DNA of 64,000 nt. Source: Alphaproteobacteria bacterium (GTDB taxonomy: Bacteria; Pseudomonadota; Alphaproteobacteria; Rs-D84; SZUA-605). Where the stretch lies: NCBI GenBank assembly GCA_031549385.1, contig JAVBPW010000006.1, positions 1-64,000 of the forward strand. The letters are read 5' to 3'. Both the position numbers and the translations under genes were made by a program. The notes below the pieces were generated by a model. That model was not told where the DNA came from, did no database searches, and worked only from the letters and a program-made list of their open reading frames with translations. Below, in pieces: positions 5,266 to 63,399 of this stretch (the stretch's first letter is position 1; every line of letters starts with the position of its first letter).

Positions 5266-5319
5266 CAACTTGAAGTTGCACACTTATTTTTTTAAATAAT
5301 AAACTTAAATTAACATTCT

Positions 5320-5760
5320 ATGGAAAATATATCGTTAGTAAATTTTGGAAAACCGGATAGGATTATGTACGACAAAACAACTTTGCACGTGCAACAAATC
5401 TCCTTTGTTTGGGGAAGAAGAAAAATCAAAAAACTACTTCCTATTTTGGAAGAAATTTTGTTCAAACTAAAGGAAGGGAGACCTTCAAGTATCAAACACA
5501 ATATCTTGGGATTTCCTCCTGGACTTGTGTGCAGTATTTCAAATGTACGAATCCACAAGCTTGTTGATGGGTTCTATGACATTGCGCACCCTCTTGCTAT
5601 ATTTGATGGCAAGAAGCAAACAAAAGATGGGGAAGCATTGAAAGACCCTGCAAAAAGGATTGTTATTATAGAACTTGAAAAGGCTCCTATATTTGTTAAT
5701 CCTATGACAGGTAGCATCTTTGATGCTAGTCAAAATGCAAAATATTCCGGAAATTTTTAA
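5320..5760 (+). CDS. Orphan hypothetical protein (SD-less class), paralog of 5828..6226
   Basis: 146-aa ORF; AAACTTAAA at 5301-5309, no SD; C-terminus VIIELEKAPIFVNPMTGSIF aligns with the neighbour. Confidence 0.75.
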   Translation: MENISLVNFGKPDRIMYDKTTLHVQQISFVWGRRKIKKLLPILEEILFKLKEGRPSSIKHNILGFPPGLVCSISNVRIHKLVDGFYDIAHPLAIFDGKKQTKDGEALKDPAKRIVIIELEKAPIFVNPMTGSIFDASQNAKYSGNF

Positions 5761-5770
5761 TTGGTATTTT

Positions 5771-5800
5771 AAGTCTTGAGTAATCAAGACTTTATGTTTT
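5771..5800 (+). terminator. Intrinsic terminator-like hairpin
   Basis: AAGTCTTGA-GTAA-TCAAGACTT followed by a T-rich tract; related to the hairpin at 6244. Confidence 0.65.
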
Positions 5801-5827
5801 TATTTTTTAATTTATAAACTTAAAGAA

Positions 5828-6226
5828 ATGAATTTATTAAACTTTGGTGAAATCAGTCAAATTGTTATTGAGGGAATCGTTGTTAAAAAAATAATCTACG
5901 TAAAGCCTGGAGCTCGGATTTGCGATTTTGTTGATAAATTGGTAGAAGCACTGAACAAAAGAAAAGCTGGTAAAGTACAGGAAATTGATATTGGTATTTT
6001 TGGACTTCCTTTACATACACTTTGGCATATGAAAAATATCATAGTTATTGATGCTTTTTTAGGTAAGTATTACCTTAATACCGACAAAATACTTTTTGAT
6101 TGGGCCGCTGGAAAAACTCCTAGCATTAATTCTATGGATAGCAGAGCATTGGTTATTGAGTTCGTTGATAACAGTCCAATTATCATTGATCCTAAGACTG
6201 GAATTATTTTCAATAGCTATTTTTGA
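5828..6226 (+). CDS. Orphan hypothetical protein (SD-less class), paralog of 5320..5760
   Basis: 132-aa ORF; AAACTTAAA at 5816-5824; shared NFG, GxFGxP and IExxxxPIxxxPxTGxIF motifs. Confidence 0.75.
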   Translation: MNLLNFGEISQIVIEGIVVKKIIYVKPGARICDFVDKLVEALNKRKAGKVQEIDIGIFGLPLHTLWHMKNIIVIDAFLGKYYLNTDKILFDWAAGKTPSINSMDSRALVIEFVDNSPIIIDPKTGIIFNSYF

Positions 6227-6243
6227 TACAGTTGCAAAAATTT

Positions 6244-6274
6244 AAAAGCTTGAGAAATCAAGCTTTTTATTTTA
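6244..6274. terminator. Intrinsic terminator-like hairpin
   Basis: AAAAGCTTGA-GAAA-TCAAGCTTTT. Confidence 0.7.
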
Positions 6275-6304
6275 TAATTTATATATAATTTTAAAAATAT
6301 ATCT

Positions 6305-6433
6305 ATGAATAAATTTAAACCTAGGCGGAAAACCACAAAAAATGAGCATTCTTGCAGTATTGTTCCAAACTCATTAAACAAAATTGTTTCTGTTAAAAAA
6401 ATTAAAACATCAAATATTGTGAAGATGGAATAA
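6305..6433 (+). CDS. Possible 42-aa small ORF or degenerate third copy of the 5320/5828 unit
   Basis: MNKFKPRRKTTKNEHSCSIVPNSLNKIVSVKKIKTSNIVKME*; sits after a similar hairpin and AT-rich leader. Confidence 0.3.
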   Translation: MNKFKPRRKTTKNEHSCSIVPNSLNKIVSVKKIKTSNIVKME

Positions 6434-13087: not shown

Positions 13088-13353
13088 GCCCTTAATTTGA
13101 TTGAAATTTGAAGATTTTGGTGAATTTGAAGGAATTTGGTAAGTTTTATGGAGTTTGGGGGACTTATTGAGTTTTTACGAATCGCTGCCATGTTTTGTGA
13201 TATGAATCGGTCTTTTTAATCAAATTATGCCTTGAAGCTTATAAATTCCTTTAGGAATTTATGTGTTTAGGAATAAAAGCACCTGTAAATTATTAAAATT
13301 ATATTCGATTTTAAGTATTTTACATTATTTTAAAGATTTTTATTCGTTTTTAG

Positions 13354-13382
13354 TTGACAAATAATAAATTACATCCTATATT
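13354..13382 (+). promoter_or_regulatory. Sigma-70 promoter of the lipoprotein gene
   Basis: TTGACA-N17-TATATT. Confidence 0.7.
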
Positions 13383-13436
13383 GTAAGTATAAAGAGAAAA
13401 TAAATTTAAAAAATCATAAACAAAAAATTAATAATC

Positions 13437-14663
13437 ATGAAAACGTGTAAATATTTTGTAGTATTAGCTCTCGTGGGAGCTATGTTGGTATCGTGTGGTA
13501 AGGAAGAAGGTGAAGATACACCTCCCGTGTTGAACTATAAGGTATCCGTTAAGGACCTTGTAATTAGTGGCGTTAGCGATCAAGCGAAAGCTGAAATCGA
13601 AAGCACTATTAAACGTATCGAAAAAGACTTTCAGGGAAACGGAAAGAACATTGACGAGATTTTAACCTCGGCAAAATCAACTTTCGCATCTCAATTGAAT
13701 TTCATCGATGAAAGCGCCCTGAAGCTGAAATTGGCCGACGGCATTGATGTTTCTGCACCGGTGGAAATGAAAGCTGAAAACGTTTCGAAAGCAGGTAGTA
13801 TAGCTTTTGAAGCCATCCTTATCAATGACGGAAAAACCGTGGACAACAAGAAGTTTGGTATCGAAAGTTCTAAGAAAGCTGAAACTTTTCTTTTAACTAA
13901 AGATTTCGGAAATCAAACTTTGGAGCCAGTTCAAGTAATGACAAAAATTACTGAAATAAACCAAGAAATAACTAGCTTTAAAACAGCTAATTCAATTTCT
14001 TCTGCAAATGTAAAGATAACTTGGAAAAACCTTACAGTTTCACAAGGATCTATTACAGAGCAATGGTTTCTTTTGCAGACTTATTTGCAAGGTTCAGTTG
14101 AATTTTTGAAGATGGAGAAAGTAGTGTTTGCTGATGCTTTTGTAGTAGATAGCTATGAAATTCTTCAAAATTTATTTGATAATGGACTTAGAGTTTCTTC
14201 TTGGGAAGTAAAATCAGGAATTTTATCTTTGAAAAAAATTTTAAAGAATAAAGAAACTGATAGTAACTTCGTTCTTGCTGTAGGAGGTTATACAGATAAT
14301 TTATCATGGGATTTTACCGATGTTCCTATTTTAACTGTAGAAATGATTAATAAATTGTTTACTTTTGTTCTTGGTGGACAAATTGCAATTAATTCAAACA
14401 GTCCTGCAATAGAAATGAGTGGAAATTGGTTCAGAGACCCTAACGAACCCGAAACCAGCACCCTGTTTAAATTTGAACAAGTTTTTAAGTTTAGAACATC
14501 AGGTGTTGACTTTATTGCACCATGGCCAACCAGAAAATTTATTGATGCAAATAACGATTGGACTTACCCTTCAATTGAGACTGCAAAACAGGAAGGTTCT
14601 CAACCTTCTGATATTGTAAAAGCATTATATAATTTCTTCAGTGGAAGAACCTGGCCAAATTAA
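13437..14663 (+). CDS. Lipoprotein of unknown function (SD-less class)
   Basis: Lipobox MLVS-C followed by GKEEGED; A-rich leader without SD; hairpin ATCCCC-TATTTT-GGGGAT downstream. Confidence 0.85.
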   Translation: MKTCKYFVVLALVGAMLVSCGKEEGEDTPPVLNYKVSVKDLVISGVSDQAKAEIESTIKRIEKDFQGNGKNIDEILTSAKSTFASQLNFIDESALKLKLADGIDVSAPVEMKAENVSKAGSIAFEAILINDGKTVDNKKFGIESSKKAETFLLTKDFGNQTLEPVQVMTKITEINQEITSFKTANSISSANVKITWKNLTVSQGSITEQWFLLQTYLQGSVEFLKMEKVVFADAFVVDSYEILQNLFDNGLRVSSWEVKSGILSLKKILKNKETDSNFVLAVGGYTDNLSWDFTDVPILTVEMINKLFTFVLGGQIAINSNSPAIEMSGNWFRDPNEPETSTLFKFEQVFKFRTSGVDFIAPWPTRKFIDANNDWTYPSIETAKQEGSQPSDIVKALYNFFSGRTWPN

Positions 14664-14710
14664 AATATTTAACTTTAAAAATAAATCCCCTATTTTGGGG
14701 ATTTTTTATT

Positions 14711-17700
14711 TTATAATGCTTTTAATTTTAAATTTGGTAATCTACTTATTCCAGTTTCTATCTCAAACACTTTTGGACAGCCGTTTGACACTGGAGTATT
14801 TGAACAATCATAATTGAATGTTCCTGTTGAATCAATTTTATAAGCTTTAGTTACATTAGATGCATTTTTACAAGTTAACTTACGTTCTCCAGATTCATCA
14901 TCTAGGACAAATGAAACAAAAGTTGAATAAGAAGATTCTGGACAAATTGGATTTGAAGGAGTTCCACATTTCCAACATGTTCCTGAATTATATTGTATAC
15001 TAAATGCAGCTAAACAATCACCTGTTGTTTGGTTAATTGTAGTTGCTGGGCTTTCTGTACAAATCTTTATTGAGCAATATTGACAATTATTTGCTGATTT
15101 TGGGTCATATCCTAAAGTACATGTTATATTACCTGAGGCATCTACTGAAGCTTGTAAATTTTTCCACCCTGTTGGCTTAACCCAAGTAGACCTTAAATCT
15201 TTATCAAATTCACAAACAGCATCTCTTGATGTCCAACCATCACCTGTTTTCCAGAAACTAACTGTATTTGCATTAACTGATGCTTTATTACATGCAGTTG
15301 TTGTTGTGTCTGATGTATCAGTTGTATTACAGCATGATGTTGATGTGTAAATTGTTGTATCTGAATATGCTGTTGCGCTATATTTTGGACGACACTCTGT
15401 TACACAATTTGTTGTCGGAATTGTATTTATTGATCCTCTTGCCTTTTGTAACTTTATATACTTTGCTGTGAATGTTGGAGCTGAACCACTTGCTGTGCAA
15501 TAGTTTGTATATTCATCTCCCCAACCTGTAGTGTTGTTTTCCCATTTATGATATTCATAAATATTTGTACTATCTTGAGCTTGTGAACATGCAGTTCCAG
15601 ATGTACCTCCTGTTGGGTCACAACAAAGATCTGTATTTGCACCAGTTGTAGTTTTTTGTGCTGTTGTTAGGCCATATTTTGGGCGACAATCTGTTACACA
15701 TAATGCTACACCCATTGATACAGGTACGTGGTTTGCTGTAGCAGCTGCTGTATTATTATTTGTTTTTGTATATTTTATATGTGAACCTTGAAAATTAGCG
15801 GCTCCAGATTTGTCTGTGCAATAATTTTGATCAGTGCAAGATCCCCATCCTGTAGCATCTACCCAAGCTGAATATAAATGAGAATCCGGTTGTGAAGTTG
15901 CACATTGTCCATCATATTTATTTGTTGTACATCTTGTGTCTTTATTTAATGTATTACCATTTATAACTGTAGCTGTTTCTATTTTATAACCAGCTCCTGC
16001 ATATATATACCTTGGTTGGCAACCATCTAAACATTCATCTGTTTTAATAGGTGAACTTCCTGTTGTAGGTCTTGTCTTTGAATACTTAATATAATTAGTA
16101 TTAATAGAAGTACTTAAACCATTTGCTGTACAATAATTATTATTTGAACAAGCTTGCCAGCCACTTGTTTCTAGCCATTTTGAATATGTATATGCTGAAG
16201 AACCACATGGATAGTTTGCTGCGTCACCTGTTGTATTACATGTTACTGTACTGTTATATGGTGCAGAACTTCCTGTCTGGAATGCGGGTTGGCAAGTCTT
16301 TTGACAGTCATTTATTAAATCAGGTGTTTGTATACTTGGGGTTCCTGTAAATGCTCCAGTACATTGTACAAAACCTTGATTAGCCCAACCTAATGCGTCT
16401 GTCCATGTTATCTTTCTGCTTACTGGTTCTGTTCCATATTTACACCATGCTTCTGTTGCACTTATATATTTGCAAGAATTGTATGTTGTTGCTGTGCTTG
16501 TACCTCTTGTCCATGTGTATGTTGATTTGTATTCACAATCTGATCCTTGGTCTAAACATGTTGTTCCACCATTTAATTTTAAATGAGGAACTGGTTTTAC
16601 TCTGGTTACACATTCTGCTACTCTCTTTTTTGTATTGTTTGCTGTAGCGTCAACTTTGTTTATATCTACATATGCTACTTGAGTAATTGTTGTGTAATTA
16701 GTACATTTATTTATTTGAGATGTTGAATCCCATCCATTTGCTGCTACCCATCCAAAATATTTGTAAGCATCATCATCTGAACGTACATAATCACATGCTT
16801 CTTTATTTGCATCAGTTGTTGTTGCAGCTGTTATAGATTTATTACAACAATCACTTATAGAATTATCTTCTATTTTTGCTGTTATCCAACCAACTTTACT
16901 TGCTGCACCTGCTTCAAATTTTGGTTGGCAATTTGTTACACATTTATCTAATTTAATAGAACCTGTTTGGTCTTTTGCTATTTTATTAGTTAGGTAATCA
17001 CTTATACCTGTGTTTATATTTGCCTTGCTGTAATGTATCCACTTTGCAGCAGTGGCTGTTGCATCACGATCAGTGCAATTATTTATAGTTGAACATGTAC
17101 TCCAACCATAACCATCATCCCATGTTGCATATAAATATCCTGATGAAGCACTACAATTATTGTACATAGCTTCTGTTTCTACACAAACTGTTGTACTTCC
17201 AAATTGTGGGCGACATGTCTTTAAACATTTTGTTACTTGTAATCTTCCTGTCGCATTTTTATTTATCTTTCCACCTTGTGTATCTATTAATGCATTAGTT
17301 GCTGATGTATTATCATTGTCATATTCACCTGATATATATTTAGAACCTGTAGTGCCTTCTAATGATGTAGAACAACGATTTACTTTATTACATGCACTCC
17401 ACCCCGCTGTATCACTCCATGCTGAATAGTTATATTCACGAGCTCTTGGGAAACCATCACAATTATCATGTGTTACTGGTGTTAAATTACATTTTTCTAC
17501 TGCATGAACTTCTAATGCTGAAGCAGCTGGATTTGAATATGCTGGTTGGCAAAGGTCTACACAATCTGTTGTTACAATTGGAGTTGTAACTCTTGTTTTA
17601 GAATATTCTATATAAGCTATTGGTTTGTTAGTTGGTTTTGCACCTGCTGCATAACAATAATTTTTTTCACATGTTGTTGCCCAACCATTTTCATCTGTCC

Positions 17701-30855: not shown

Positions 30856-30888
30856 AACCTTACGTTCACGATTTATAAAAAAAGGAGG

Positions 30889-31503
30889 CTAAGCCTCCTT
30901 TTTTAATGTGTACAAATCGTACCGGTCAACTTGCCCCGAATAAGGGAAACAAGTTAAATACCTCGGTGTTACCACAATTTCACGATAGGTACATGGAATT
31001 TTATCAAGAGTTAGGAATGATAAAAAACCTATACCCTTTTCGCTTTCTATCATTGAACCTACCAGTTCTTTGATATATTTGCGACCAATTACCATTTCGC
31101 TTTCTCGGCCTTTGTAAAATTTTTCTCCGTCAGGCAATTTATCTTCAATAAATGAAAAAACACCATTCGTTTTTTCAAGCATTGTATAACTGTTTTCATT
31201 TAAGAAAACATAAGGTCCACGAAAAATACGAGATGCTTCTTCAATGTTTGATAACCGGCTGACTTTGTTGCCTTTTATCATTACTATAGCTTCTTTGAGT
31301 GAGTACCAATCATGTAGAATGATTAAGTTTTTTTCTACATGATCTTGCTGATGAAGCTCAATTGTATGATACTCATCAGGAAGTAACTCTCCTTTGATAA
31401 CCGCTGCACAGTTGCTTTTTCCTTGGAACACAAAATTTGTATTGTTTAAGGAAAAATGAATCATCTTGTTAAGCGCTTGGGCTTGTTTTAAATTTGTTTT
31501 CAT
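30889..31503 (-). CDS. Orphan hypothetical protein (SD-less class)
   Basis: 204 aa; leader CAAACTTAAATAATAAACATA-ATG; TTGACT upstream; stop lies inside the hairpin AAAAAAGGAGGC-TTA-GCCTCCTTTTTT. Confidence 0.75.
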   Translation of the reverse strand: MKTNLKQAQALNKMIHFSLNNTNFVFQGKSNCAAVIKGELLPDEYHTIELHQQDHVEKNLIILHDWYSLKEAIVMIKGNKVSRLSNIEEASRIFRGPYVFLNENSYTMLEKTNGVFSFIEDKLPDGEKFYKGRESEMVIGRKYIKELVGSMIESEKGIGFLSFLTLDKIPCTYREIVVTPRYLTCFPYSGQVDRYDLYTLKKEA

Positions 31504-31646
31504 TATGTTTATTATTTAAGTTTGAATATCGCTATTTAACTATTTTAATCCCATTTAGTCAAGTTTTTTTTATTTTTATATTAGAATAAGTTGACAAAAT
31601 TGAATATTGATTGTAAAGTACTCCCATAAACTTAAAAAATAGAAAT

Positions 31647-31823
31647 ATGAGTTTACATAGTGAGCAATTCGAAATGTATGAAAATTTCAAGAACGGGATT
31701 TTACCCGCTGAGGAATTTTACGATTATGTTGAAAAACATGGTCTTGTAAAGCAACTTCAAGCTCAATTAATTAGTGATTTTTGGGATATTTGGTCTGAAA
31801 AAACAAAAAAATATGATGATTGA
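31647..31823 (+). CDS. 58-aa orphan (SD-less class), single-domain paralog of 31940..32335; not in the ORF track
   Basis: MSLHSEQFEMYENFKNGILPAEEFYDYVEKHGL...; TTGACA(31591)-N17-TAAAGT; AAACTTAAA at 31628; terminator GAGTGG..CCACTC. Confidence 0.75.
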   Translation: MSLHSEQFEMYENFKNGILPAEEFYDYVEKHGLVKQLQAQLISDFWDIWSEKTKKYDD

Positions 31824-31939
31824 GTTGCTTTGATAGCTAAATTGAGTGGTTAAAGCCCACTCTTTTTATTTTTTGTTGACAAAAATAATTTTGAGGATTA
31901 TATTTTGAATAAATTCATTAATATTAAACTTAAAAAAAT

Positions 31940-32335
31940 ATGAATACTAAAAGAAATGCAAATGAAGAGCTTGAAATTCTTCAAGACTTTATAGATGGGA
32001 TCATGGATCCCGACGAACTTTATCAGTATATTATGCTGAACGGATTACATGTGTCTGTGCAATGGAGGGCTTTTGCGGAACTTTGCGTTCAAAAATTTAA
32101 AAGCAACCCGAAAGACTTTGAAAATATAAATTTCGATGATGCAGAAATTATTGCAAAAACTCTCGACGAAGAGCGAGATTTTTACAATGGTTTTGCTAAA
32201 GGTACAGTTAACCCGGAGGATTTGAAAACTTATATATTAAAAATTGGGTTAGATCCGGAGGTGATTGTGGAACTTATTGCTGACCTCGAGGATCTTTTAT
32301 ATCCGGTCAAAATCCGAGAAGAGGATGACGAGTAA
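31940..32335 (+). CDS. Orphan with an internal duplication (SD-less class)
   Basis: TTGACA(31876)-N17-TATATT; AAACTTAAA at 31926; two copies of F-x-x-G-x-x-x-P-(D/E)-(E/D)-L-x-x-Y-I-x-x-x-G-L. Confidence 0.8.
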   Translation: MNTKRNANEELEILQDFIDGIMDPDELYQYIMLNGLHVSVQWRAFAELCVQKFKSNPKDFENINFDDAEIIAKTLDEERDFYNGFAKGTVNPEDLKTYILKIGLDPEVIVELIADLEDLLYPVKIREEDDE

Positions 32336-32467
32336 GGCAAATTTGTGAAAAGGGTGAGAGTGGCTTGATAGGCCACTCTTTTTTTTATTTTCTTAAAGAT
32401 TGACAAATAGGATTATAAGCAGTAAATTTAAATGGTTATTTTATAATCAAACTTAAATAAATCCCTT

Positions 32468-33007
32468 ATGAATCAAGAAAAAATTAATCCACTAGCTGGA
32501 TGGAAAGCAACATTAGACAGTGCAGAAATAAATTTGCAAGAATCATTGCAGATTTTTGTTCAAGAAACAAATGATAGACTACCTCATTTGGTTGAAGAGT
32601 CTTTCTTTCGATTGAGTTACTTAACCGGTAACTTCAATCTGGTTGAACAATACTGTACATACGGTAAATTAGTCAGTAAAGACATTCACAAGCGAATGAA
32701 GCTTGAGCAGATTAAATACCTGCTTAAAGAAATGTTTAGACCGGAAGACGAATTATACCTTCACTATGGCGAAGGGTTCGGAGATGGTTTGGAAGAACTT
32801 GCTGAGGAAATGAGTGAATTTTATTCTGAAGAATTTCAGGAATTTTTCCTTAAAGCATGTTGTTCTACTGAAAGGCGGGAAGCTATTACTACATTTTGTA
32901 GTAAGCTGTTTTTAAATGAAGCCTCTGTGATGCAGGAAATTAACCTGTATTACATCCGTAGAGAAAAAATGCAGATGGCTCTTTTTGGGCATACTGTGCA
33001 GAATTAA
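32468..33007 (+). CDS. Orphan hypothetical protein (SD-less class)
   Basis: TTGACA(32400)-N17-TAAATT; AAACTTAAA at 32449; terminator ATAAGCGGC..GCCGCTTAT at 33025-33050. Confidence 0.8.
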   Translation: MNQEKINPLAGWKATLDSAEINLQESLQIFVQETNDRLPHLVEESFFRLSYLTGNFNLVEQYCTYGKLVSKDIHKRMKLEQIKYLLKEMFRPEDELYLHYGEGFGDGLEELAEEMSEFYSEEFQEFFLKACCSTERREAITTFCSKLFLNEASVMQEINLYYIRREKMQMALFGHTVQN

Positions 33008-33071
33008 TGTTGTTGGAAATTTTTATAAGCGGCTTTCAGGGGCCGCTTATTTTTTTATTTATAATATTATT

Positions 33072-33098
33072 GAGATTGCTTCGTTCCTCGCAATGACA
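33072..33098. repeat. Palindromic-element (RPE/REP-like) fragment, intergenic copy
   Basis: GAGATTGCTTCGTTCCTCGCAATGACA. Confidence 0.7.
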
Positions 33099-33102
33099 AT
33101 AA

Positions 33103-45992: not shown

Positions 45993-46091
45993 ATTTTGCT
46001 CCTTATTTTAATAACTTCAATTCTACCTTAAATTGAATATTAAGTCAAATTAGGAAATAAAAAAGAGCCCTTTAAGGGCTCAAGTAAAAAA

Positions 46092-47426
46092 TCATTGTCC
46101 GAGTGAATTCATGTACTCGGCAATTTTGCGTTTGTCTTCCGGAGATATTTCGATACTTGTTTGCAAAGTATCGGTTATTTCCTTTAATGTTAACACTGAA
46201 TGAAGTCTCACTCCTTCTTTTTCAAGAAGTTCATCGGCACCTTGCTTGCGGTTGACCAAAACAACTACATCACATACATCGAGACCTAAATCGCGAAGTT
46301 TGTTGATCGTTGTCATGGTGCTGCCACCTGTGGTTGCTACATCTTCGAAAACAATAACCCTTTCTTTATCTTCGGGGTTGAAAGTTTCAACAGTTTGAGA
46401 ACCTGTTACCCCGTGGTCTTTTGCTTCTTGACGTAATGTCAACAAAGGTTTTCCGGTTGATTGTGCAAGTCTTGCTGCAAAGCTTAACCCACCCATGGGA
46501 ACACCGCACACGCGATCAAATCCACAAGTTTGTGCTACTTTGGTAATGTGGTAAATCGCATTGCCAAACAGCGTCGGGAATGACGGCATGTTACGAACAT
46601 CAATGTAAATCGGCGAAAATGCTCCGGATTTCAGTTTGAAATTACCTACTTTGACTATTTCATGTTTGAATAATTCTTGTATGAATTTTTCTTTGATAGT
46701 CGGTACTTTCACCGGATTTGTCGATGTCTGTTTGATTTCGTCCAAAATTTTCATCGCTGCTTCGGATGGAGCATAGTGACTGTGCGCGGTGATTGAGCGA
46801 CCTATTACCATTGCTGAAGAACCCATGAGGATTGCTTCTGACGGTGTGGTTATTCGCTTTTGATCGCCAGGACTGTCCCAAACAGGTCGAATTCCCGGAG
46901 TAATCAATAACGCATCAGGTCCCATAATTTCACGGACGCCGGCAACTTCTTTCGGTGAACAAACTAACCCATCCATGTGACAATCCTTTGCCAACTGCGC
47001 CAAATGGTAAACCATTTGTTCGGGCGGGTAGATAAAACCGATTTCGGTCATATCCCCTTCACCGAGGCTGGTCAGTATTGATACTGCAATAATCTTAACA
47101 TCCGGATTTACTGCTTTTCCTGCTTTGACAGCGGCTTTCATCATTTCCTGCCCGCCGGTTGCATGAACATTTATAATGTCTGCTCCTGCTTTGGCGGCGG
47201 CGGTTACCGCACCGGCTACTGTATTGGGAATATCGCTTTCTTTCACATCAACAAAGAGTTTGCAATCTTTTTTCCGTAACGCTCGGACCACTTGTGGTAA
47301 TCCTTCGGAATTCAGAATTTCTTTGCCTACTTTGTAAATGCCAACACATTCAGATGTTTGTTCAACGAGTTCTACTGCTCGTCCTAAACTAGGCACGTCA
47401 AGTGCCACAATGATTTTGTTCTTCAT
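46092..47426 (-). CDS. pyrF-pyrE: Fused OMP decarboxylase-orotate phosphoribosyltransferase (PyrF-PyrE), SD-less class
   Basis: IVALD, DVKESDIPNT, TPGIRP, DQKR and IGRSIT, then FKLKSG, IYIDVR and VFEDVATTGGS; TTGACT-N17-TACTAT; AAACTTAAA at 47441-47449. Confidence 0.92.
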   Translation of the reverse strand: MKNKIIVALDVPSLGRAVELVEQTSECVGIYKVGKEILNSEGLPQVVRALRKKDCKLFVDVKESDIPNTVAGAVTAAAKAGADIINVHATGGQEMMKAAVKAGKAVNPDVKIIAVSILTSLGEGDMTEIGFIYPPEQMVYHLAQLAKDCHMDGLVCSPKEVAGVREIMGPDALLITPGIRPVWDSPGDQKRITTPSEAILMGSSAMVIGRSITAHSHYAPSEAAMKILDEIKQTSTNPVKVPTIKEKFIQELFKHEIVKVGNFKLKSGAFSPIYIDVRNMPSFPTLFGNAIYHITKVAQTCGFDRVCGVPMGGLSFAARLAQSTGKPLLTLRQEAKDHGVTGSQTVETFNPEDKERVIVFEDVATTGGSTMTTINKLRDLGLDVCDVVVLVNRKQGADELLEKEGVRLHSVLTLKEITDTLQTSIEISPEDKRKIAEYMNSLGQ

Positions 47427-47515
47427 TTTAATTTGATTTATTTAAGTTTGGATTTTTATTAAATTACGTTGATAGTATTTAATATTAAGTTAAAAGTCAA
47501 TGTTTAAAATTTAGG

Positions 47516-56691: not shown

Positions 56692-57255
56692 ATGGAAAAT
56701 ATTTTAATTATTGATGCATGTTATAGCCCTGTTCGTCTTTGTTTATATCAAAAAGATGAAAAGAAAAATATGCATAAATTAAAGTCTGTTTTTGTTACTG
56801 AAAATAATGCTATTAATGAGAAACTTTTTGTATCACTTACCGACCTTTTAAACGAAGCTTCAATCGATAAAAATGAAATCACTAATTTAGTTGCAATTGT
56901 TGGACCTGGTTCTTTTACTGGAATTAGAATTGCTATTGCTTTTATTAAAGGATTACAATTCGGTTTAAAAGTTGATACTATTGGAATTTCTTCTTTTGAT
57001 AAGTATCCTGATGATGGAGCAGTTGTTTTAAATTGTGATAACGAAACTGTTTACTTAAAAGTTGGCAATAAGGTCTATGAAAAACCTGTTGATAATGAGA
57101 AAGTTTCTAACATTATTAAAAATGAAAAAAAGATTTATAAAAATGAATATAGCGATGATGATTTCTTGATGAAAAAAATTGATAAATGTTTTGAAAGTCC
57201 TGAAAAATATCCTCTTAATCCTATTTATATAAAAGGTCATTATGCAGAAAAATAA
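56692..57255 (+). CDS. tsaB: tRNA threonylcarbamoyladenosine biosynthesis protein TsaB
   Basis: GPGSFTGIRI motif and C-terminal PIY; adjacent to rimI. Confidence 0.88.
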   Translation: MENILIIDACYSPVRLCLYQKDEKKNMHKLKSVFVTENNAINEKLFVSLTDLLNEASIDKNEITNLVAIVGPGSFTGIRIAIAFIKGLQFGLKVDTIGISSFDKYPDDGAVVLNCDNETVYLKVGNKVYEKPVDNEKVSNIIKNEKKIYKNEYSDDDFLMKKIDKCFESPEKYPLNPIYIKGHYAEK

Positions 57256-57676
57256 ACATATTTTTTTAGCTGAAAAAAGTGATATTGATTCTATATTAAA
57301 TCTATATAATAAAACTTTTCACCCTTGGTCACGTGAACAAATGATGGAACTGTTTGAATATGGCGCTAAAGCATTTATCTATGTTAAAGATGAAAAACTT
57401 CTTGGATTTTTGATTTTTAAAACTGTTTTTAATGAAACAGAAATTATTTCTTTAACTGTAGATGAAAATGTGCGACAAACTGGAATTGCTAGCGAGCTTT
57501 TGAGCTATCTTTTTGAAACACTTTCAACACCTCATTATGTTTTTTTGGAAGTTAGAGTTTCTAATACTCCTGCTATTAAATTTTATGAAAAGTTTGGCAT
57601 GAGCCAAATCAATGTCAGAAAGGATTATTATACTAATCCTATTGAAGACGCCCTTATTTATAGAAAAAATTTATAA
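57242..57676 (+). CDS. rimI: Ribosomal-protein-alanine N-acetyltransferase
   Basis: RQTGIA, LEVRVSN..AIKFYEKFG and RKDYY..EDA motifs. Confidence 0.92.
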   Translation: MQKNKHIFLAEKSDIDSILNLYNKTFHPWSREQMMELFEYGAKAFIYVKDEKLLGFLIFKTVFNETEIISLTVDENVRQTGIASELLSYLFETLSTPHYVFLEVRVSNTPAIKFYEKFGMSQINVRKDYYTNPIEDALIYRKNL

Positions 57677-57692
57677 TAAAAAAACAGGAGTT

Positions 57693-58058
57693 TTAAAACC
57701 CCTGTGAACTGTTTAAATACGGTAAAATTTTTTCAACTACCTCTTCTTGATAAGTTGTTCCCAATGACGGAAACTTTGCAACAAAGTAATCCCACCGGAT
57801 TAATTGAATTGGTCGTACCAAGACTTGCTTTTCATCCTGCTTGATGGAAATTGAAAGATATTGGCAACAGCAAGAAAAAAACTTTTTTTCTTCATCTTTG
57901 TCTATAACTTTAACACTATGACCTGTCATAATCTTAAAGATTTCACTATCCTTGCCATCAAGAACGTGAAAATTAACCATGTTGTGGCGTTCTAAAAAAT
58001 CAAGAACGTCTTTAAGGTCAAAGAACTTTCCCTTTGAGCTAATGCAAAATGTTTTCAT
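57693..58058 (-). CDS. Orphan, TG-motif family (SD-less class)
   Basis: TTGACA-N16-TAGACT; AAACTTAAA at 58069-58077; EIFKIMTG. Confidence 0.78.
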   Translation of the reverse strand: MKTFCISSKGKFFDLKDVLDFLERHNMVNFHVLDGKDSEIFKIMTGHSVKVIDKDEEKKFFSCCCQYLSISIKQDEKQVLVRPIQLIRWDYFVAKFPSLGTTYQEEVVEKILPYLNSSQGF

Positions 58059-58136
58059 ATATTGGATTTTTAAGTTTATTTTTGAATTTTTATTAGTCTA
58101 TCTGATTTTTTGAAATTGTCAAAATAAAAAAGGGGG

Positions 58137-58298
58137 TTAATACCCCCATTGTTTTCGTTGATCAGCTTTAGCCATTATTTCCTCTTTAGTTGGAGGGATT
58201 ATCTTTTGTCCTTTTGGAACAAAAAAACTGCAAGCACCAACAGTGCACCAATTTCCATCTTCTTTTGGCTTGGAAGCCTTCTTTTGTTGTGTGTTCAT
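58137..58298 (-). CDS. 53-aa orphan (SD-less class); not in the ORF track
   Basis: MNTQQKKASKPKEDGNWCTVGACSFFVPKGQKIIPPTKEEIMAKADQRKQWGY*; TTGACA-N16-TAATAT; stop inside the hairpin GGGGG-TATTAA-CCCCC. Confidence 0.65.
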   Translation of the reverse strand: MNTQQKKASKPKEDGNWCTVGACSFFVPKGQKIIPPTKEEIMAKADQRKQWGY

Positions 58299-58372
58299 AT
58301 TTGTTTATTTGATTATTTATAGAGTTTTGATATTAACAACTTGATTATAATTGTCAATAAAAAATGTGCGGG

Positions 58373-58678
58373 TCAATTCCCGCACAATTCTTGAGGTTGA
58401 GAAAAGTAAACTTTTCCTACCTCCTTGTGTGTTAATGAGTAAAGGAGCTCGGGGTTTATTGCCCCAAATTTGAAGTTTAGATAACCTTGACAGAAACCTA
58501 TCATTCTGCAAAAAGTGTCCATAGCTTTTTCTTCATTTTCATCTGAAGTTGTTGGATGATCTGTTAGAAACTCTACCATGTCTTCCAAAAAGGCTATTTG
58601 TTCTTCTTGTAGGATATCTTCCCAAAGGAGTTTTAACTCCTGACCCGAATAATTTCGGACTTCACTGCTTATACTCAT
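58373..58678 (-). CDS. Orphan (SD-less class)
   Basis: Perfect TTGACA-N17-TATAAT at 58709-58737; stop inside the hairpin TGTGCGGG..CCCGCACA. Confidence 0.78.
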   Translation of the reverse strand: MSISSEVRNYSGQELKLLWEDILQEEQIAFLEDMVEFLTDHPTTSDENEEKAMDTFCRMIGFCQGYLNFKFGAINPELLYSLTHKEVGKVYFSQPQELCGN

Positions 58679-58761
58679 TTTATTTAATTTTTAATAAAAC
58701 ATGAGTGTATTATAGGATATTTTTCTTTATTTGTCAAGCTTTTATAAAATAAAAACGGGGA

Positions 58762-59271
58762 TTACTCCCCGTATATTGCTTCTTCAAGCTGATTTAAGTA
58801 CACCTCCTCACCTTTACTGAACAAATCAAACTTTCTTAAATCATTCATTGTTTCAGATAAAGATACTTGAGAATAAATTTCAGCTATTTGCTCACAAATT
58901 AATGATAATTCCGCATTGTACATGTCAGGAACACCATTGTGAGCCATAGATCTCAGCCTACCCAGCGCCCAATCAAGCTGTAAGGGCATTATGAGATAAC
59001 TCTCATCTTGGTCGATATCAATTAACCTCATGCCTTTTTTAAAGGTACAGGTTTTTTCCAAGTCAGAGTACAGGCTTTTTAGCTTATTGCCACAATCTTT
59101 GTGTAACAATTTAAAATTTGCTGCTAATTCTTCTGAAGTCGCACCAGTCAAAATTTGAATTGCCTCTGTAATAGAAGGCTCATTTTCAAACTTTTTGTAG
59201 AAAAACCCCAATAATTGTCTGGGACTGAAATGCTTTGAAGGCTTGCCGATTTTATAGGTTACTTTACTCAT
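58762..59271 (-). CDS. Orphan, TG-motif family (SD-less class); start reassigned to MSKVTYK at 59271
   Basis: TTGACA-N16-TAGAGT at 59300-59327; AAACCTAAA leader; EAIQILTG. Confidence 0.78.
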   Translation of the reverse strand: MSKVTYKIGKPSKHFSPRQLLGFFYKKFENEPSITEAIQILTGATSEELAANFKLLHKDCGNKLKSLYSDLEKTCTFKKGMRLIDIDQDESYLIMPLQLDWALGRLRSMAHNGVPDMYNAELSLICEQIAEIYSQVSLSETMNDLRKFDLFSKGEEVYLNQLEEAIYGE

Positions 59272-59351
59272 AACTATAATTTTTAGGTTTGTAAGCTTCA
59301 CTCTAATTATATAGGGTGAATTGTCAATTAGAAAAAAAGAAAACGGAAGAT

Positions 59352-59795
59352 TTATTCTCCCGTTTCTTTGAATTGTACAAATTGGTCTATTTCCTTTGAA
59401 GCATAATGACTTCCTTGAATCTTTTTCTTTGTGTTGAAAAAATTGTAAACCAACTCTTCCCTTTCTTGGAAAGATTTGTTCCAAGATGTGTTTGCTCTTT
59501 CATATTCAAATATAAGAATTGGAGGAATAGAATAATTTACACCACCTCTGGCTTTTGGAACATGTTGCTGGCGAAAATAACCATTTTTCATTGATATATA
59601 ATTGCAACACAATTCATAAAGCTCATCTGCTCTTTTTTCAGGTAGAAGGAAAAAATCCTGACCTGTCATGATTTCAAATATTTCAGAAAAACGTTCACAG
59701 TCTTTTTTGTTTTTTGGAACACCCTTTAGAAACATTTTTAATTCCGTTTCATGAAACCAAGCTGACTCTTTTGTTATTCGTAATGGTTTATCCAT
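59352..59795 (-). CDS. Orphan, TG-motif family (SD-less class)
   Basis: TTGACA-N16-TAGACT at 59820-59847; AAACTTAAA leader; EIFEIMTG. Confidence 0.78.
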   Translation of the reverse strand: MDKPLRITKESAWFHETELKMFLKGVPKNKKDCERFSEIFEIMTGQDFFLLPEKRADELYELCCNYISMKNGYFRQQHVPKARGGVNYSIPPILIFEYERANTSWNKSFQEREELVYNFFNTKKKIQGSHYASKEIDQFVQFKETGE

Positions 59796-59901
59796 ATATT
59801 TATTTTTAAGTTTAAATTCAGTCTATACACCTTAACCACATTGTCAATGATTAAAAAAACGGAAGTATTCTTCCGTTTTACATTTGTCGCATAAGTCCAT
59901 T

Positions 59902-60393
59902 TTAACAAGGACCAGGAGCCCAATCGTATGTCCGACTGAATAACCCAGGACTGTTATCCCCATGATCCGCAAATGGGAAGTTGAGTTCAAACCGAGCCAC
60001 TGCCATATTTGGTGTTATATGGTTTCTTGCTCTTTCTCTTCTTTGATTCATTTTCTTTTCGGCTTCTATTTCAGCTTCAATAAAAAGGATTGAGCAAACC
60101 TCTGAATACCATATTTGACCTTCATGCAATTCATCAGGCCAACGTTGCCAACAACTAATTTTACGGTTTAACCCGTTATGGGCAAGCATAAGATATTTCT
60201 TCCTTACTTTTCCCGGCAGGTTGTCATACCTGTAGCCCGTTAATATATGGAAAATTTCTCTGGTCTCTGGAGTTTTAGGCTCCTTTTCTATGAAAAACCT
60301 GTAAATGTGGTGGCACGGTATCTTTTTTGATTGCATTTTTATTAAAGGATACCTAGAAATTTCTAAGTATTCTAGTAAGATTTTTTTATCCAT
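59902..60393 (-). CDS. Orphan, TG-motif family (SD-less class)
   Basis: TTGACA-N16-TAAGCT at 60420-60447; AAATCTAAA leader; EIFHILTG. Confidence 0.78.
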   Translation of the reverse strand: MDKKILLEYLEISRYPLIKMQSKKIPCHHIYRFFIEKEPKTPETREIFHILTGYRYDNLPGKVRKKYLMLAHNGLNRKISCWQRWPDELHEGQIWYSEVCSILFIEAEIEAEKKMNQRRERARNHITPNMAVARFELNFPFADHGDNSPGLFSRTYDWAPGPC

Positions 60394-60550
60394 ATGTTTG
60401 ATTTTTTAGATTTAACAATAGCTTACAATAAACTCGTAATTTGTCAAGCCTAATTAGGCTTTTTGGAAACAGAAAGTTGACTTTAATGCTTGATTTTTTT
60501 GCTTTTTGTACTAAATTAGAACTGGAAGTAAAAAAGATCCAAGGATTGAA

Positions 60551-62938
60551 ATGATAGATAAAAAATTTGCAGTGCTACCGCTTAGAGATGTTGTTATTTA
60601 CCCAGGCATGATTTTGCCTTTGTTTATTGGTAGAGACTCTTCTATTAAAGCTTTACAAGCTTCACTTGATGAACATAAGTCTGTTTGTCTTGCTACTCAA
60701 AAGACTGCTCAAATGAAAGATGAAATTACTGATAAAGACATTTATAAGGTAGGAGTACTTTGTAACGTACTTCAATTTCTTAATCTTCCTGATGGAACAG
60801 TTAAAATATTAGTTGAAGCAAAAAGTTCTGTTAAAATCTCTGATGTTGCCTTTGAAAACTCTGTTATGACCGCATCAGTTGAGGTTATTGAAAATATAGA
60901 TGATATTAAAAATTCACCTGAAATTAAAAATTTAGTGGAAACTCTTGGGGACTCATTCTTGTACTATACTAAGATTTCTAAGAAAGTACCTAATGACATA
61001 ATCGAAAACTTACGTAAGAACCTTGAATTAGGTGTGGTTATTGATAATGTATTAAACTACGTAGATATTGATATCAAAACTCAACAAGAAATATTAGAAT
61101 TGCCTATTACTGCTCAACGACTAAGCAGATTTATACAAATTGTTGAACAACAAATTGCTACTTTCAAATTGGACCAAAAAATTCAAAACAGAATTAAATT
61201 CCAATTAGATAAAAATCAAAAAGACTTTTACCTTAATGAAAAAATGAAAGCTATTTCTAAAGAATTAGGCGATGATAACGAATATGACGTTTATGAAGAA
61301 AAATTAAAAACTGTTAAACTTTCTAAGGAAGCTGAAGTTAAAGTTAAGGCTGAAATTGCTAAATTGAAAAAAATGCCACCTATGTCTGCGGAAACTACTG
61401 TTATTCGCAATTACTTAGACTGGGTGTTTGATTTACCTTGGGGAAGAAAAAGTAAACTTTCTCACGATATTTCTGAGGCTAAAAAAATACTTGATGAAGA
61501 TCATTATGGATTGGAAAAAGTTAAAGAAAGAATTATACAAAATTTAATAGTGCAAAAAAGAACTAAAAAAACTGCACCTACTATACTTTGTTTGTTTGGA
61601 CCTCCAGGGGTTGGTAAAACTTCTTTAGGACAATCTATTGCTCGTGCTATGGGTAGAAAATTTGACCGTATATCACTTGGTGGGGTTAGCGATGAATCTA
61701 CACTTAGAGGTCATAGAAGAACTTATATCGGATCACAACCTGGACGTATTATGGCAACTCTTAAAAAAGTAGGAACTAATAATCCTTTAATCATGTTGGA
61801 CGAAATCGATAAAATGACCAGAGATTGGCATGGAGATCCTACTGCTGTACTTTTGGAAATATTAGACCCAGCGCAAAATAAAGCGTTTAATGATCACTAT
61901 ATCGAATTAGACTATGATTTGTCTGATGTGATGTTTATTACTACTGCTAATTCCCTTAATATTCCTCGCCCTCTTCGCGATCGTATGGAAATTATTAATA
62001 TCGAAGGGTATACAGAAGATGAAAAATTACAAATTGCCAAGAACCATTTGATAAATAAAATATTTGAAGCTAATGGAGTTGGACATAGCGAAATAGTATT
62101 TGATGATAATGCTATACTTGACTTAATCAGATATTATACTCAAGAAGCTGGGGTTAGAAATTTAGATAGAGCTATTTCTAAAGTTGTTAGAAAGTCTATT
62201 ATGGAAATCGAAGATAAAGGATTAAAGAATATAAAAATTACTCGCGAAAACTTAAAAGAGTTTGCAGGAATTCCTCAATATTCTCATGAAGATAAAGCTA
62301 ATAAAAATCAAGTCGGGGTTGTTAATGGACTTGCTTGGACGGAAGTTGGTGGGGAACTCTTACCTTTGGAAGCTGTTTATATGTATGGAAAAGGAAATCT
62401 TACTCTTACTGGTTCTTTAGGTGATGTTATGAAAGAATCTATTCAAACAGCTAAGTCTTTCATTAAATCACGTGCTATATCTTTTGGAATTCACCCTCAG
62501 ATGTTCGATAAATATGATATTCATATTCACGCACCTGAAGGAGCTACACCTAAAGACGGACCAAGCGCTGGACTTGCTTTTGCTACCGTTATAGTTTCAT
62601 TGCTTACTGGAATTCCTGTGAAATCTGATGTGGCTATGACTGGAGAAATTAATCTTCAAGGTAAAGCATTGGCGATTGGCGGATTGAAACAAAAACTCTT
62701 GGCTGCTAAACGAGCTGGGATTAAAACTGTTCTTATACCAGCTAAAAATGTTAAAGACTTAGAAGAAGTGCCTGATAATATTAAAAATGCTTTGGAAATT
62801 AAACCAGTAGAAACTGCTGATGAAGTGTTTGAAATTGCTTTGGCTACACCACTTATTCCTTTGAAATGGGATAAAGAAGCTGAGGATAGGTATCTTAATA
62901 TAAAGCATGATGAAAATATGAAACCTACTGTAAATTAA
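60551..62938 (+). CDS. lon: Lon protease
   Basis: LPLRDVV N-domain, GPPGVGKTS, DEIDK, PKDGPSAG and IGGLKQK motifs. Confidence 0.98.
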   Translation: MIDKKFAVLPLRDVVIYPGMILPLFIGRDSSIKALQASLDEHKSVCLATQKTAQMKDEITDKDIYKVGVLCNVLQFLNLPDGTVKILVEAKSSVKISDVAFENSVMTASVEVIENIDDIKNSPEIKNLVETLGDSFLYYTKISKKVPNDIIENLRKNLELGVVIDNVLNYVDIDIKTQQEILELPITAQRLSRFIQIVEQQIATFKLDQKIQNRIKFQLDKNQKDFYLNEKMKAISKELGDDNEYDVYEEKLKTVKLSKEAEVKVKAEIAKLKKMPPMSAETTVIRNYLDWVFDLPWGRKSKLSHDISEAKKILDEDHYGLEKVKERIIQNLIVQKRTKKTAPTILCLFGPPGVGKTSLGQSIARAMGRKFDRISLGGVSDESTLRGHRRTYIGSQPGRIMATLKKVGTNNPLIMLDEIDKMTRDWHGDPTAVLLEILDPAQNKAFNDHYIELDYDLSDVMFITTANSLNIPRPLRDRMEIINIEGYTEDEKLQIAKNHLINKIFEANGVGHSEIVFDDNAILDLIRYYTQEAGVRNLDRAISKVVRKSIMEIEDKGLKNIKITRENLKEFAGIPQYSHEDKANKNQVGVVNGLAWTEVGGELLPLEAVYMYGKGNLTLTGSLGDVMKESIQTAKSFIKSRAISFGIHPQMFDKYDIHIHAPEGATPKDGPSAGLAFATVIVSLLTGIPVKSDVAMTGEINLQGKALAIGGLKQKLLAAKRAGIKTVLIPAKNVKDLEEVPDNIKNALEIKPVETADEVFEIALATPLIPLKWDKEAEDRYLNIKHDENMKPTVN

Positions 62939-63049
62939 AATTAAGCCCTTGAAAAAGGGCTTTTTATTTTCTAGGAATTCCTTCTTATTGATATAACTTT
63001 TTGATTGTTAATACTTAAAAACGTTTTTAAATATTAAATAAATAATCAT

Positions 63050-63356
63050 ATGAAAGATAACTTATTAGAAAATCGGAAAGGCTTATAATGAAGCCAAAAC
63101 TCAAAATGAACTGTTTCCTAAATTAGAGGAAATTTTGAAAAAGTTTTCTCTTGCAGAGGAATTTATCTTTTTTTCTTTCTGCAAAAGACTATGTCTTTGG
63201 GATGTAGCAAAGTTTTATGCTAAAAATTTTGGTTTTGAAAAAGAAGTTCAAGAAAAATTGGTTAATGAAATTACTATACTTGGACAAGAACTTGTCGCAA
63301 TGGCTGATGAAAGCGATGAAACATTAAAACTTCTGAAAGATATTTCAGAAATGTAA
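63050..63356 (+). pseudogene. Frameshifted orphan (SD-less class)
   Basis: ATG at 63050 after an A-rich leader reads MKDNLLE; a 1-nt shift in GAAAAT continues IGKAYNEAKTQNELFPKLEEILKKF into ORF 63135..63356; terminator AAAGCGGC..GCCGCTTT. Confidence 0.55.
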
Positions 63357-63399
63357 AATTAGAAAGCGGCCATTAATTAGCCGCTTTCATTTATTTAGC

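Follow-up and report, generated by a model that had tools for sequence, protein, structure and literature searches.

The first 64,000 nucleotides (nt) of contig C5 (JAVBPW010000006.1) in an alphaproteobacterial genome, referred to here as the window, carry housekeeping genes such as rpoD, rimI and lon together with yebC-family and typA-like genes, and between these a series of short stand-alone genes that share one leader. This leader lacks a Shine-Dalgarno (SD) match and displays the nine-letter word AAACTTAAA, in the following called the box, a few nucleotides before an ATG. The genome as a whole, with 931 kb in eight contigs, 30% GC and 97% completeness, contains two kinds of expression unit: SD-led genes, many of them in operons, and stand-alone boxed units. 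As will be discussed, the AAACTTAAA leader suggests that lineage-specific genes are turned on here by a route of their own that has not been described so far.

The initial annotation of the window had listed about 15 genes of one architecture, and much of this picture stands. All 15 listed starts are ATG codons and 14 of them begin open reading frames (ORFs) of 53-444 amino acids (aa); the remaining one, at 63050 (63020..63090, plus strand), opens a frame of 12 codons only and is not a member. The nine positions at which an exact AAACTTAAA had been named all prove exact and lie 3-14 nt before the ATG, whereas the genes starting at 13437 and 58298 have only degenerate boxes with two to three mismatches. 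None of the 15 shows an SD match, and their GC content at third codon positions (GC3) ranges from 0.24 to 0.37. A promoter of the form TTGAC[AT]-N16-17-TAnnnT precedes 11 of the 15, exactly the number originally given. The proposal that each gene has its own terminator, often overlapping the stop codon, also fits: a hairpin with a T-run is found within -17..+73 of the stop in 14 of the 15 and begins before the stop in six. Scanning 57600-60600 for terminators returned 14 terminator-like sites (1.8 in shuffled sequence) and scanning 30800-33150 returned five (1.0 in shuffles); the scanner also places exact TTGACA -35 hexamers before units.

The first two units on the plus strand lie directly behind rpoD (3259-5265). 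Unit 1 (5301..5800) begins with the box at 5301-5309, 10 nt before the ATG at 5320, and its ORF (5320-5760, 146 aa, no Pfam family) is followed by a hairpin and T-run. Behind this terminator, unit 2 (5816..6270) has its box at 5816-5824, 3 nt before the ATG at 5828, and encodes a weak paralog of the first protein (5828-6226, 132 aa, 25% identity); neither has a strict promoter. A marginal member on the same strand (13350..14710) combines a TTGACA-N17-TATATT promoter and an A-rich, SD-less leader with a degenerate box (two mismatches) and a 408-aa ORF (13437-14663, GC3 0.28) with a terminator. Further along, four units lie side by side. The minus-strand unit 30870..31560 has its box at 31515-31523, 11 nt before the ATG at 31503, and a 204-aa ORF (30889-31503). 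The three that follow are on the plus strand: 31591..31865 (TTGACA-N17-TAAAGT, box 31628-31636, ATG 31647, a 58-aa ORF at 31647-31823 and a terminator at 31844-31862), 31876..32385 (TTGACA-N17-TATATT, box 31926-31934, ATG 31940, ORF of 131 aa to 32335, terminator 32356-32380) and 32400..33055 (TTGACA-N17-TAAATT, box 32449-32457, ATG 32468, ORF of 179 aa to 33007, terminator 33025-33050).

All remaining units of the window are encoded on the minus strand. The unit 46070..47500 (TTGACT-N17-TACTAT, box 47441-47449, 14 nt before the ATG at 47426, GC3 0.37) encodes PyrF-PyrE, a protein of 444 aa (46092-47426) in which orotidine monophosphate decarboxylase and phosphoribosyltransferase are fused in that order. 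Six further class genes form an island between rimI (57242-57676) and lon (60551-62938). The first, 57684..58125, has a TTGACA-N16-TAGACT promoter, a box at 58069-58077, its ATG at 58058, an ORF of 121 aa (57693-58058) and a terminator at 57684-57705. It is followed by a marginal unit (58130..58360) with TTGACA-N16-TAATAT, an A-rich leader with a degenerate box, an ATG at 58298, 53 aa and a terminator at 58132-58147. The unit 58365..58740 pairs the variant box AAAATTAAA (58683-58691) with a perfect TTGACA-N17-TATAAT promoter, and the terminator of its 101-aa ORF (58373-58678) overlaps the stop codon. Variant boxes are also found in 58755..59330 (AAACCTAAA at 59282-59290; ORF 58762-59271, 169 aa, GC3 0.37) and in 59870..60450 (AAATCTAAA at 60405-60413; ORF 59902-60393, 163 aa, two CGG codons). 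Between these two lies 59340..59850, with TTGACA-N16-TAGACT, an exact box at 59805-59813, the ATG at 59795 and an ORF of 147 aa ending at 59352.

Is the box more than a frequent word in AT-rich DNA? The window contains 13 copies of AAACTTAAA compared to 4.6 +/- 2.0 in shuffled versions, and none of 100 shuffles reaches 13; the four further copies, at 14484 (minus) and at 29395, 56475 and 62248 (plus), lie within long ORFs. Genome-wide there are 117 exact copies, 63 of which fall into the non-coding 12% of the genome. An ATG-initiated ORF of at least 45 aa starts 0-20 nt after 58 of the 117 copies, while eight control 9-mers of the same composition gave only 3-11 such cases among 36-166 copies. 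The word is thus clearly above chance before ORFs, as the initial annotation had supposed.

To place these genes in their genomic context we called genes with our own ORF caller, taking the longest ORF with greedy overlap removal and no trained gene finder. The resulting set comprises 879 genes of at least 70 aa (90% coding), with start choices that are the caller's own. An SD match was defined as at least 4 nt complementary to the 16S rRNA 3' end (CCUCC core) within -20..-4 of the start codon and was found for 487 of the 879 genes. The single 16S gene ends in GGATCACCTCCTTTC with an intact anti-SD sequence, and AAGGA and AGGAG are the 5-mers most enriched 5' of start codons throughout the genome; we are therefore dealing with an SD-using bacterium. 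Its 16S rRNA is 77% identical to that of E. coli and looks alphaproteobacterial in our reading of signature features, and the only sequencing runs that contain this DNA are labelled invertebrate gut metagenome. The class itself was defined by a weight matrix trained on exact box matches, with a score of at least 12 and an ORF of at least 45 aa, so that its size depends on the threshold. While the matrix core is circular by construction, promoters, terminators, codon usage and leader properties were not used in the definition. This yields a firm class of 60 genes at 44 loci on six contigs, about 7% of genes, plus about 25 weaker members.

Class genes differ from the rest of the genome in nearly every feature compared. 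None of the 60 has an SD match (60% of the rest do), and all 60 start with ATG, while start codons in the rest are mixed. A strict consensus promoter, TTGACA-N17-TAnnnT within 120 nt, is found for 52% of the class and 4.7% of the rest; the earlier impression that housekeeping genes here use the same promoter type is not borne out, the strict consensus being rare among them. Terminator-like hairpins at the stop are present in 73% versus 22%, and operon-like spacing, less than 60 nt behind a same-strand gene, in 7/60 versus 330/799. The encoded proteins are shorter (median about 150 versus about 250 aa). The leaders (-35..-1) contain 3.4% G compared to 16.8% in the rest, which extends the description of SD-less, almost G-free leaders to class genes across the genome, and with a minimum free energy of -0.4 versus -1.4 kcal/mol (-35..0) they are less folded. 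In their coding parts, class genes are more stably folded than core genes. The visibly higher use of G/C-ending codons noted in the window also holds genome-wide, with a GC3 of 0.289 versus 0.171 (Mann-Whitney p = 1e-27), and 43 of the 60 class genes exceed the 95th percentile of the rest. The suggestion of two discrete clusters is correct in part: the GC3 distributions have two well-separated modes, but they overlap and are connected by a thin bridge of weak members.

The aligned leaders allow a closer description of the box. Its full form is Y-AAACTTAAA-AA, with an invariant C; information is confined to box positions -1..+10, and outside Y-AAACTTAAA-A-A there is almost none. The box is asymmetric, has neither a repeat nor a dyad and is always found in sense orientation. 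From its end to the ATG the distance has a mode of 10 nt, a range of 3-19 and a standard deviation of 3.9. The distance from the end of the -10 hexamer to the start of the box peaks at 17-23 nt (mode 21, standard deviation 7.0), with a minor group at 6-8 nt. At least five boxed genes begin 17-34 nt after a same-strand upstream gene, which leaves no room for a promoter. The sense-only orientation, the tighter spacing to the ATG and these promoterless boxed genes together lead us to prefer a role at the mRNA level, while the fixed distance between box and promoter keeps a DNA operator as a rival. Leaderless mRNAs, in which the -10 box lies about 7-12 nt upstream of the ATG, show a geometry different from that of the class, where a median of 38 nt separates the two. 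Descent of the leader from a duplication or a mobile promoter cassette was also considered and rejected because the class proteins are unrelated apart from four pairs; besides, the information in the leaders is limited to the box.

RNA-library data provide a first glimpse of these units in transcripts. In a metatranscriptome run of the same study, 53% of sampled words from a query stretch (window 57600-60500) are present, while RNA run X3 contains next to none of it. Four contigs assembled from the RNA library each match one class gene. One of them, 46126-47465, comprises pyrF-pyrE with 39 nt of leader including the box and stops, on the upstream side, 7 nt downstream of the predicted -10 hexamer; the others cover 58777-59274, 59456-59771 and 59870-60391. 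Contig depth in the RNA run was not used to rank expression, and joints with sides of only about 20 nt were disregarded. Contigs of this kind do not establish where transcripts end or how abundant they are, and some of the material may be carried-over DNA; they are therefore a hint that class units are transcribed with the box inside the RNA. In a DNA run, which may be the source of the assembly, the region is found in long contigs at even depth, and the units therefore belong to this genome.

The codon usage of the class is shifted towards G- and C-ending codons alike and in all codon families. Most pronounced is CGG, which occurs 32 times in 8,348 class codons and four times in the 159,521 codons of 484 SD-bearing genes, an over 100-fold higher frequency (Fisher p = 9e-38) to which 21 of the 60 class genes contribute. 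ARAGORN detects 37 tRNA genes in the genome, with arginine anticodons ACG, TCT and CCT only and no tRNA-Arg(CCG). The same-family relative described below keeps this tRNA (G001:C39:6250-6326), yet a counterpart in our genome was found neither by BLAST nor near the syntenic place. The ACG tRNA is presumably read as ICG, given a TadA-like deaminase gene at C1:86760-87200, and under textbook wobble rules ICG does not read CGG. The tRNA-Arg(CCG) gene may also be missing from the 97% complete assembly. To the initial annotation this codon usage looked tuned to a different ribosome. From the base composition of the genome's own non-coding DNA, however, one would expect a GC of 0.285 and 3.1 CGG per 1000 codons, and the class comes close to this with a GC3 of 0.29 and 3.8 CGG per 1000. 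Recent origin or weak selection on codons in the class genes is the simplest explanation, and not an adjustment to another organism. CGG in 21 of 60 genes for which no cognate tRNA was detected is the one point that keeps the earlier idea alive.

Two odd tRNA-like genes were observed on the minus strand at C2:66626-66796 behind a TTGACA promoter. In one, the anticodon is CUA, of the amber-suppressor type, and the anticodon stem contains mismatches (Rfam tRNA model, 54.7 bits); in the other, the anticodon loop has 6 nt (44.5 bits). The pair is flanked by a high-GC3, class-like ORF on one side and, on the other, by an orphan OmpR-type winged-helix gene (C2:66863-67417) that lacks a receiver domain. 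Core genes still often end in TAG (70/484).

How do these genes relate to the genomes of other members of the order? Two relatives were compared in full: G001, of the same family (671 kb, GC 0.354, 84% complete), and G002, of another family (1.03 Mb, GC 0.307, 97% complete). When the 56 class proteins shorter than 250 aa were searched by tblastn against both, neither genome gave a match, whereas SD-bearing genes of that length matched in 121 of 236 cases in G001 and in 127 of 236 in G002. The core proteins of our genome and G001 share about 49% identity, which makes the two distant relatives, and at such a distance a missing homolog can reflect fast evolution as well as acquisition. Gene order gives a complementary view. 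The flanks of class runs are adjacent in G001 for only 10 of 58 runs, compared to 214 of 285 ordinary neighbouring pairs (p = 1e-16). In the window, rimI and lon are separated by 2875 nt with six class genes, and in G001 by 108 nt. A stretch of about 17 kb at C2:106-123 kb without a counterpart in G001 holds several class units as well as a tyrosine recombinase (C2:108345-109403, GC3 0.27, no SD), a HipA-like gene and three tRNA genes, and may be an integrated element.

While the cargo is absent from these relatives, the leader recurs in one of them. The word TCAAACTTAAA occurs 21 times in our genome (three times for the reversed control), while 30 other genomes of the order contain it no more often than the control. 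The composite pattern TTGACA-N17-TAnnnT-N15-24-AAACYTA has 16 matches here and nine in G002, with none for the control in either, and zero or one in the other 59 genomes. For TAAACYTA-N3-14-ATGAA we count 32 here (control 10), 24 in G002 (control 4) and 12 in a third genome, G026 (control 4), with control levels in the remaining genomes, G001 included. G002 thus shows the same architecture that the initial annotation had suggested looking for in related genomes, with the consensus TTTAAACCTA 5-14 nt before the ATG. There, TAAACC precedes 50 of 277 SD-less ATG genes and one of 589 SD genes, and AACCTA precedes 39 SD-less ATG genes and no SD gene. The boxed genes of G002 are short ORFans unrelated to the cargo described here, with a strict promoter in 36% versus 10% and the same promoter spacing. 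Their CGG content is 20 times that of SD genes (0.99 versus 0.05 per 1000), while the GC3 shift is small (0.240 versus 0.210); only Arg-TCT and Arg-ACG are present among 27 detected tRNAs. G001 has a weak version, AAACCTATTA before about 10 SD-less genes. As the box recurs before unrelated ORFans in a related genome, it looks like a feature of these bacteria themselves. A leader word that is conserved while its cargo is not also suggests that the word belongs to the machinery of the host lineage or of a co-living element and does not arrive with each gene.

What do these units encode? Only four of the 60 proteins have a Pfam match: KdsA (DAHP_synth_1), PyrF-PyrE, a dCTP deaminase and a weak SAICAR-synthase. 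The other 56 are without a Pfam family, here called ORFans. A PHROG search gave no match for any of the 56, hits being limited to dcd and the phosphoribosyltransferase domain, and none of the 60 proteins belongs to a PADLOC defence family. One ORFan, 30889-31503, finds only itself among 5.8 billion proteins and 1.84 billion cluster representatives. Function leads for ORFans from Pfam, NCBIfam and Atlas are weak, with one WG-repeat lead (score 0.90). In our own reading of the sequences, several class members appear to have lipoprotein or signal-peptide N-termini. The class copies of pyrF-pyrE and kdsA are the only ones found in the genome. A PyrF-PyrE query gave only partial matches, in two of 60 relatives of the order, and further hits are distant (36-46% identity) and uninformative on a donor; the nearest fused forms found, at 36-45% identity, stem from unrelated Bacillota/Clostridiales metagenome-assembled genomes. 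kdsA is present in 22 of the 60 relatives at about 50% identity and has an ordinary AAGGAG site there. G002 has two adjacent kdsA copies (G002:C1:63345-65135), and the one closest to ours carries a class-type leader, AAACTTA 4 nt before the ATG. The genome further encodes a six-domain S1 protein as well as VirB4-like and VirD4-like genes; a link between the latter and the lineage-specific class ORFans through export would be hypothetical. Apart from the class, a 2463-aa ORF without a Pfam family at E <= 1e-4 (window 14711-22102, minus strand) adjoins an AcrB/HlyD-type efflux pair (22176-26340).

Taken together, we give an even chance to the reading that the class consists of moron-like accessory genes whose SD-independent leader box, AAACYUA in the RNA, is read by a factor. 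Each unit consists of a near-consensus sigma-70 promoter, a G-poor unfolded leader of about 30 nt, the box about 10 nt before the ATG and an intrinsic terminator. We infer that the box acts in the mRNA, just upstream of the usual SD position, as the recognition element of an SD-independent initiation route. The 30S subunit would bind the unfolded A/U-rich leader, probably via protein S1. AAACYUA would be recognised by a sequence-specific trans-factor, which might be a protein or else a small RNA with the sequence UARGUUU, and which would enhance or gate the translation of all members jointly. That C and U alternate at one box position would be compatible with a G opposite it in a partner RNA, which is speculation at this stage. 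The cargo is accessory, mostly lineage-specific ORFans placed between conserved housekeeping genes along with a few metabolic enzymes. Among the explanations offered by the initial annotation, the conservative one of an S1-dependent or RNA-binding-protein regulon agrees with this reading. In a bolder version, AAACYUA would be the code word of a second, sequence-specific route of translation initiation or licensing that operates beside SD for new genes and depends on a dedicated, lineage-restricted factor. We put this forward tentatively and would sooner bet against it than for it; if true, it would provide a separate expression channel for the accessory genome and could explain the escape of these genes from the codon constraints of the core, including CGG.

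Several observations weigh against an mRNA-level box with its own factor. Foremost, no trans-factor was found among the candidates tested, namely pairing with rRNA and one orphan OmpR-type winged-helix protein. A search of 16S rRNA for the complement of the box gave no site matching at least 8 of 9 positions, and the RNA strand of the 16S-23S-5S operon contains no UUARGUUU. Pairing of the kind known as the T7 epsilon type was likewise rejected, its best contiguous match of 8 nt (16S nucleotides 9-16) being within estimated chance expectation; the G001 assembly does not contain a 16S gene. Across relatives, the winged-helix protein and the box do not occur together in a matching pattern. S1 is universal and alone cannot explain a lineage-restricted word. 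The same-family G001 shows only the weak version and 58 of 60 relatives none by the patterns used, and with so patchy a distribution the trans-factor would have to be patchy too. The box also keeps a preferred spacing to the -10 hexamer (mode 21 nt), as one would expect of a DNA operator located at about +13..+22. CGG codons with a TadA-like gene and no detected tRNA-Arg(CCG) argue for inefficient translation of 21 of the 60 genes. The RNA-library contigs, likewise, leave transcript ends unproven and may include carried-over DNA. AlphaFold single-sequence models of two ORFans are poor, with a predicted local distance difference test (pLDDT) of 41 and 46. As a separate observation, the 16S rRNA gene itself contains AAACTTAAA (C6:2138-2146), in a conserved region that we take to be about 907-915 in E. 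coli numbering; this copy is probably coincidental.

The promoter spacing lends itself to a different interpretation, in which a lineage-specific transcription factor binds AAACYTAAA as a DNA operator at about +13..+22 and represses or activates the accessory set, for example host-interaction proteins exported by type IV secretion, with the lack of SD as a separate property. Regulon boxes before scattered effector genes are a known pattern, the -10-to-box distance is sharply peaked at 17-23 nt, the VirB4-like and VirD4-like genes would supply a secretion context, and strong consensus promoters that are otherwise rare (4.7%) might need a repressor. We nevertheless consider an operator unlikely. 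The space upstream of at least five boxed genes is too short for a promoter, a minority of boxes lies only 6-8 nt after the -10 hexamer, and the spacing is tighter to the ATG than to the promoter; the box, moreover, is asymmetric, without repeat or dyad and sense-only, and the only regulator tested, the winged-helix protein, is not co-distributed with it. The origin of the units raises a further option, which on this question overlaps with an RNA-level box: a lineage-specific mobile gene pool (phage, plasmid or conjugative element) with an element-encoded factor, whose genes enter piecemeal in the manner of morons. Their anatomy, with own promoter, own terminator, deviant composition and insertion between genes adjacent in relatives, speaks in its favour, and so do the patchy distribution, with only our genome and G002 clearly enriched among 61 genomes, two tyrosine recombinases beyond a likely XerC/D pair, the HipA-like and VirD4-like genes, and the two odd tRNA genes, one with a CUA anticodon, beside high-GC3 ORFs. 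On the other hand, none of the 56 ORFans matches a PHROG family, which leaves the domesticated phage early genes proposed initially undemonstrated as well. The promoter-plus-box pattern is found singly per viral contig among the matches listed (about 80 of 119), the units are spread over 44 separate loci among housekeeping genes and do not form a block, the two boxed genomes share 0 of 56 cargo genes, and the GC3 of the class resembles the non-coding GC of its own genome. Such a pool strikes us as doubtful.

The most far-reaching proposal of the initial annotation was that the mRNAs of these genes are exported and translated in a host bacterium, with AAACUUAAA as an export or initiation tag; in a wider form, the receiving cell may be that of a Bacteroidota or an animal host. 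The mRNAs are indeed short, monocistronic and SD-less, and their codon usage does not fit their own tRNA set, in which no tRNA-Arg(CCG) appears among 37 tRNA genes. But the class includes the only copies found of kdsA and pyrF-pyrE plus dcd, which by their function must act in the encoding cell and leave delivery unsupported. Apparent lipoprotein and signal-peptide proteins in the class, a CGG frequency that equals the prediction from the genome's own non-coding composition, and an assembly whose 97% completeness allows for a simply missing tRNA gene point the same way, and nothing in the data speaks to export. We regard it as highly improbable.

Parts of this system have counterparts in known ones. 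GeneMarkS-2 sorts genomes into those that use SD sites, those in which a non-SD A-rich signal precedes all genes, those that combine SD sites with leaderless genes, and an unclassified rest; a genome in which SD sites occur beside a second, word-specific leader that is restricted to atypical genes has no place in this scheme (PMC6028130). Bacteroidota of its group B resemble the class in an SD-less A-rich signal about 9-10 nt before the start with the anti-SD kept in 16S rRNA, and differ in that the same loose A-rich motif is described before nearly all genes, operon-internal ones too (PMC6028130). The class, in contrast, has a specific word before about 7% of genes that are mostly monocistronic and atypical in composition, and 60% of the rest are SD-led. 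With its invariant C and its recurrence as TTTAAACCTA in G002, this word does not match the generic A-rich Bacteroidota signal invoked initially. Integron cassettes were rejected as a model, the best integron-integrase score being 43.6 bits against a cut-off of 265 and the units having their own promoters; no formal attC search was made. Full-text literature searches for AAACTTAAA and for the concept gave no description of such a class, judged by top-ranked titles and abstracts.

Three further systems can be compared. Morons, reportedly described by Juhala, Hendrix and colleagues around 2000, are said to consist of a sigma-70 promoter, one ORF and a factor-independent terminator. The class is similar in its autonomous single-ORF units, its deviant composition and its location between genes adjacent in relatives, but shows no recognisable prophage and no phage family match and has a common SD-less leader box, which is not known to be a feature of morons. 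S1-dependent, G-poor, unstructured enhancers such as the omega leader of tobacco mosaic virus and A/U-rich enhancers allow SD-free initiation and have low sequence specificity. The G-depleted, unfolded 5' leaders of the class and the encoded six-domain S1 are in line with this, in contrast to the conserved 11-nt word that differs between relatives (AAACTTAAA versus TTTAAACCTA). In leader-operator regulons, for example those with CsrA/RsmA GGA sites, T4 RegA or the AU-rich sites of Yersinia YopD-LcrH, the operator accompanies the SD site. They share with the class the scattered genes, often virulence or accessory genes, and a short motif beside the start codon, whereas here the box replaces the SD site. 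A CsrA/RsmA regulon proper was rejected, a GGA motif being impossible in leaders with so little G, although no search for a csrA gene was made.

Gene finders and textbooks allow a genome a single kind of start signal, or else SD sites combined with leaderless starts. The bacterium described here uses SD sites and yet appears to maintain a second leader, defined by a specific word, for about 7% of its genes, precisely those that are lineage-specific and atypical in composition. With CGG used in the class and abandoned by the core, and its tRNA not found, the genome also lends itself to a direct test of whether a codon is being reassigned or lost. Should a dedicated factor read the box, it would offer a compact SD-free cassette of promoter, leader and terminator in about 100 nt, and candidate host-interaction genes of uncultured symbionts could be found by a simple sequence tag. 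It would also provide a handle on how new genes are expressed and co-regulated in reduced, host-associated bacteria.

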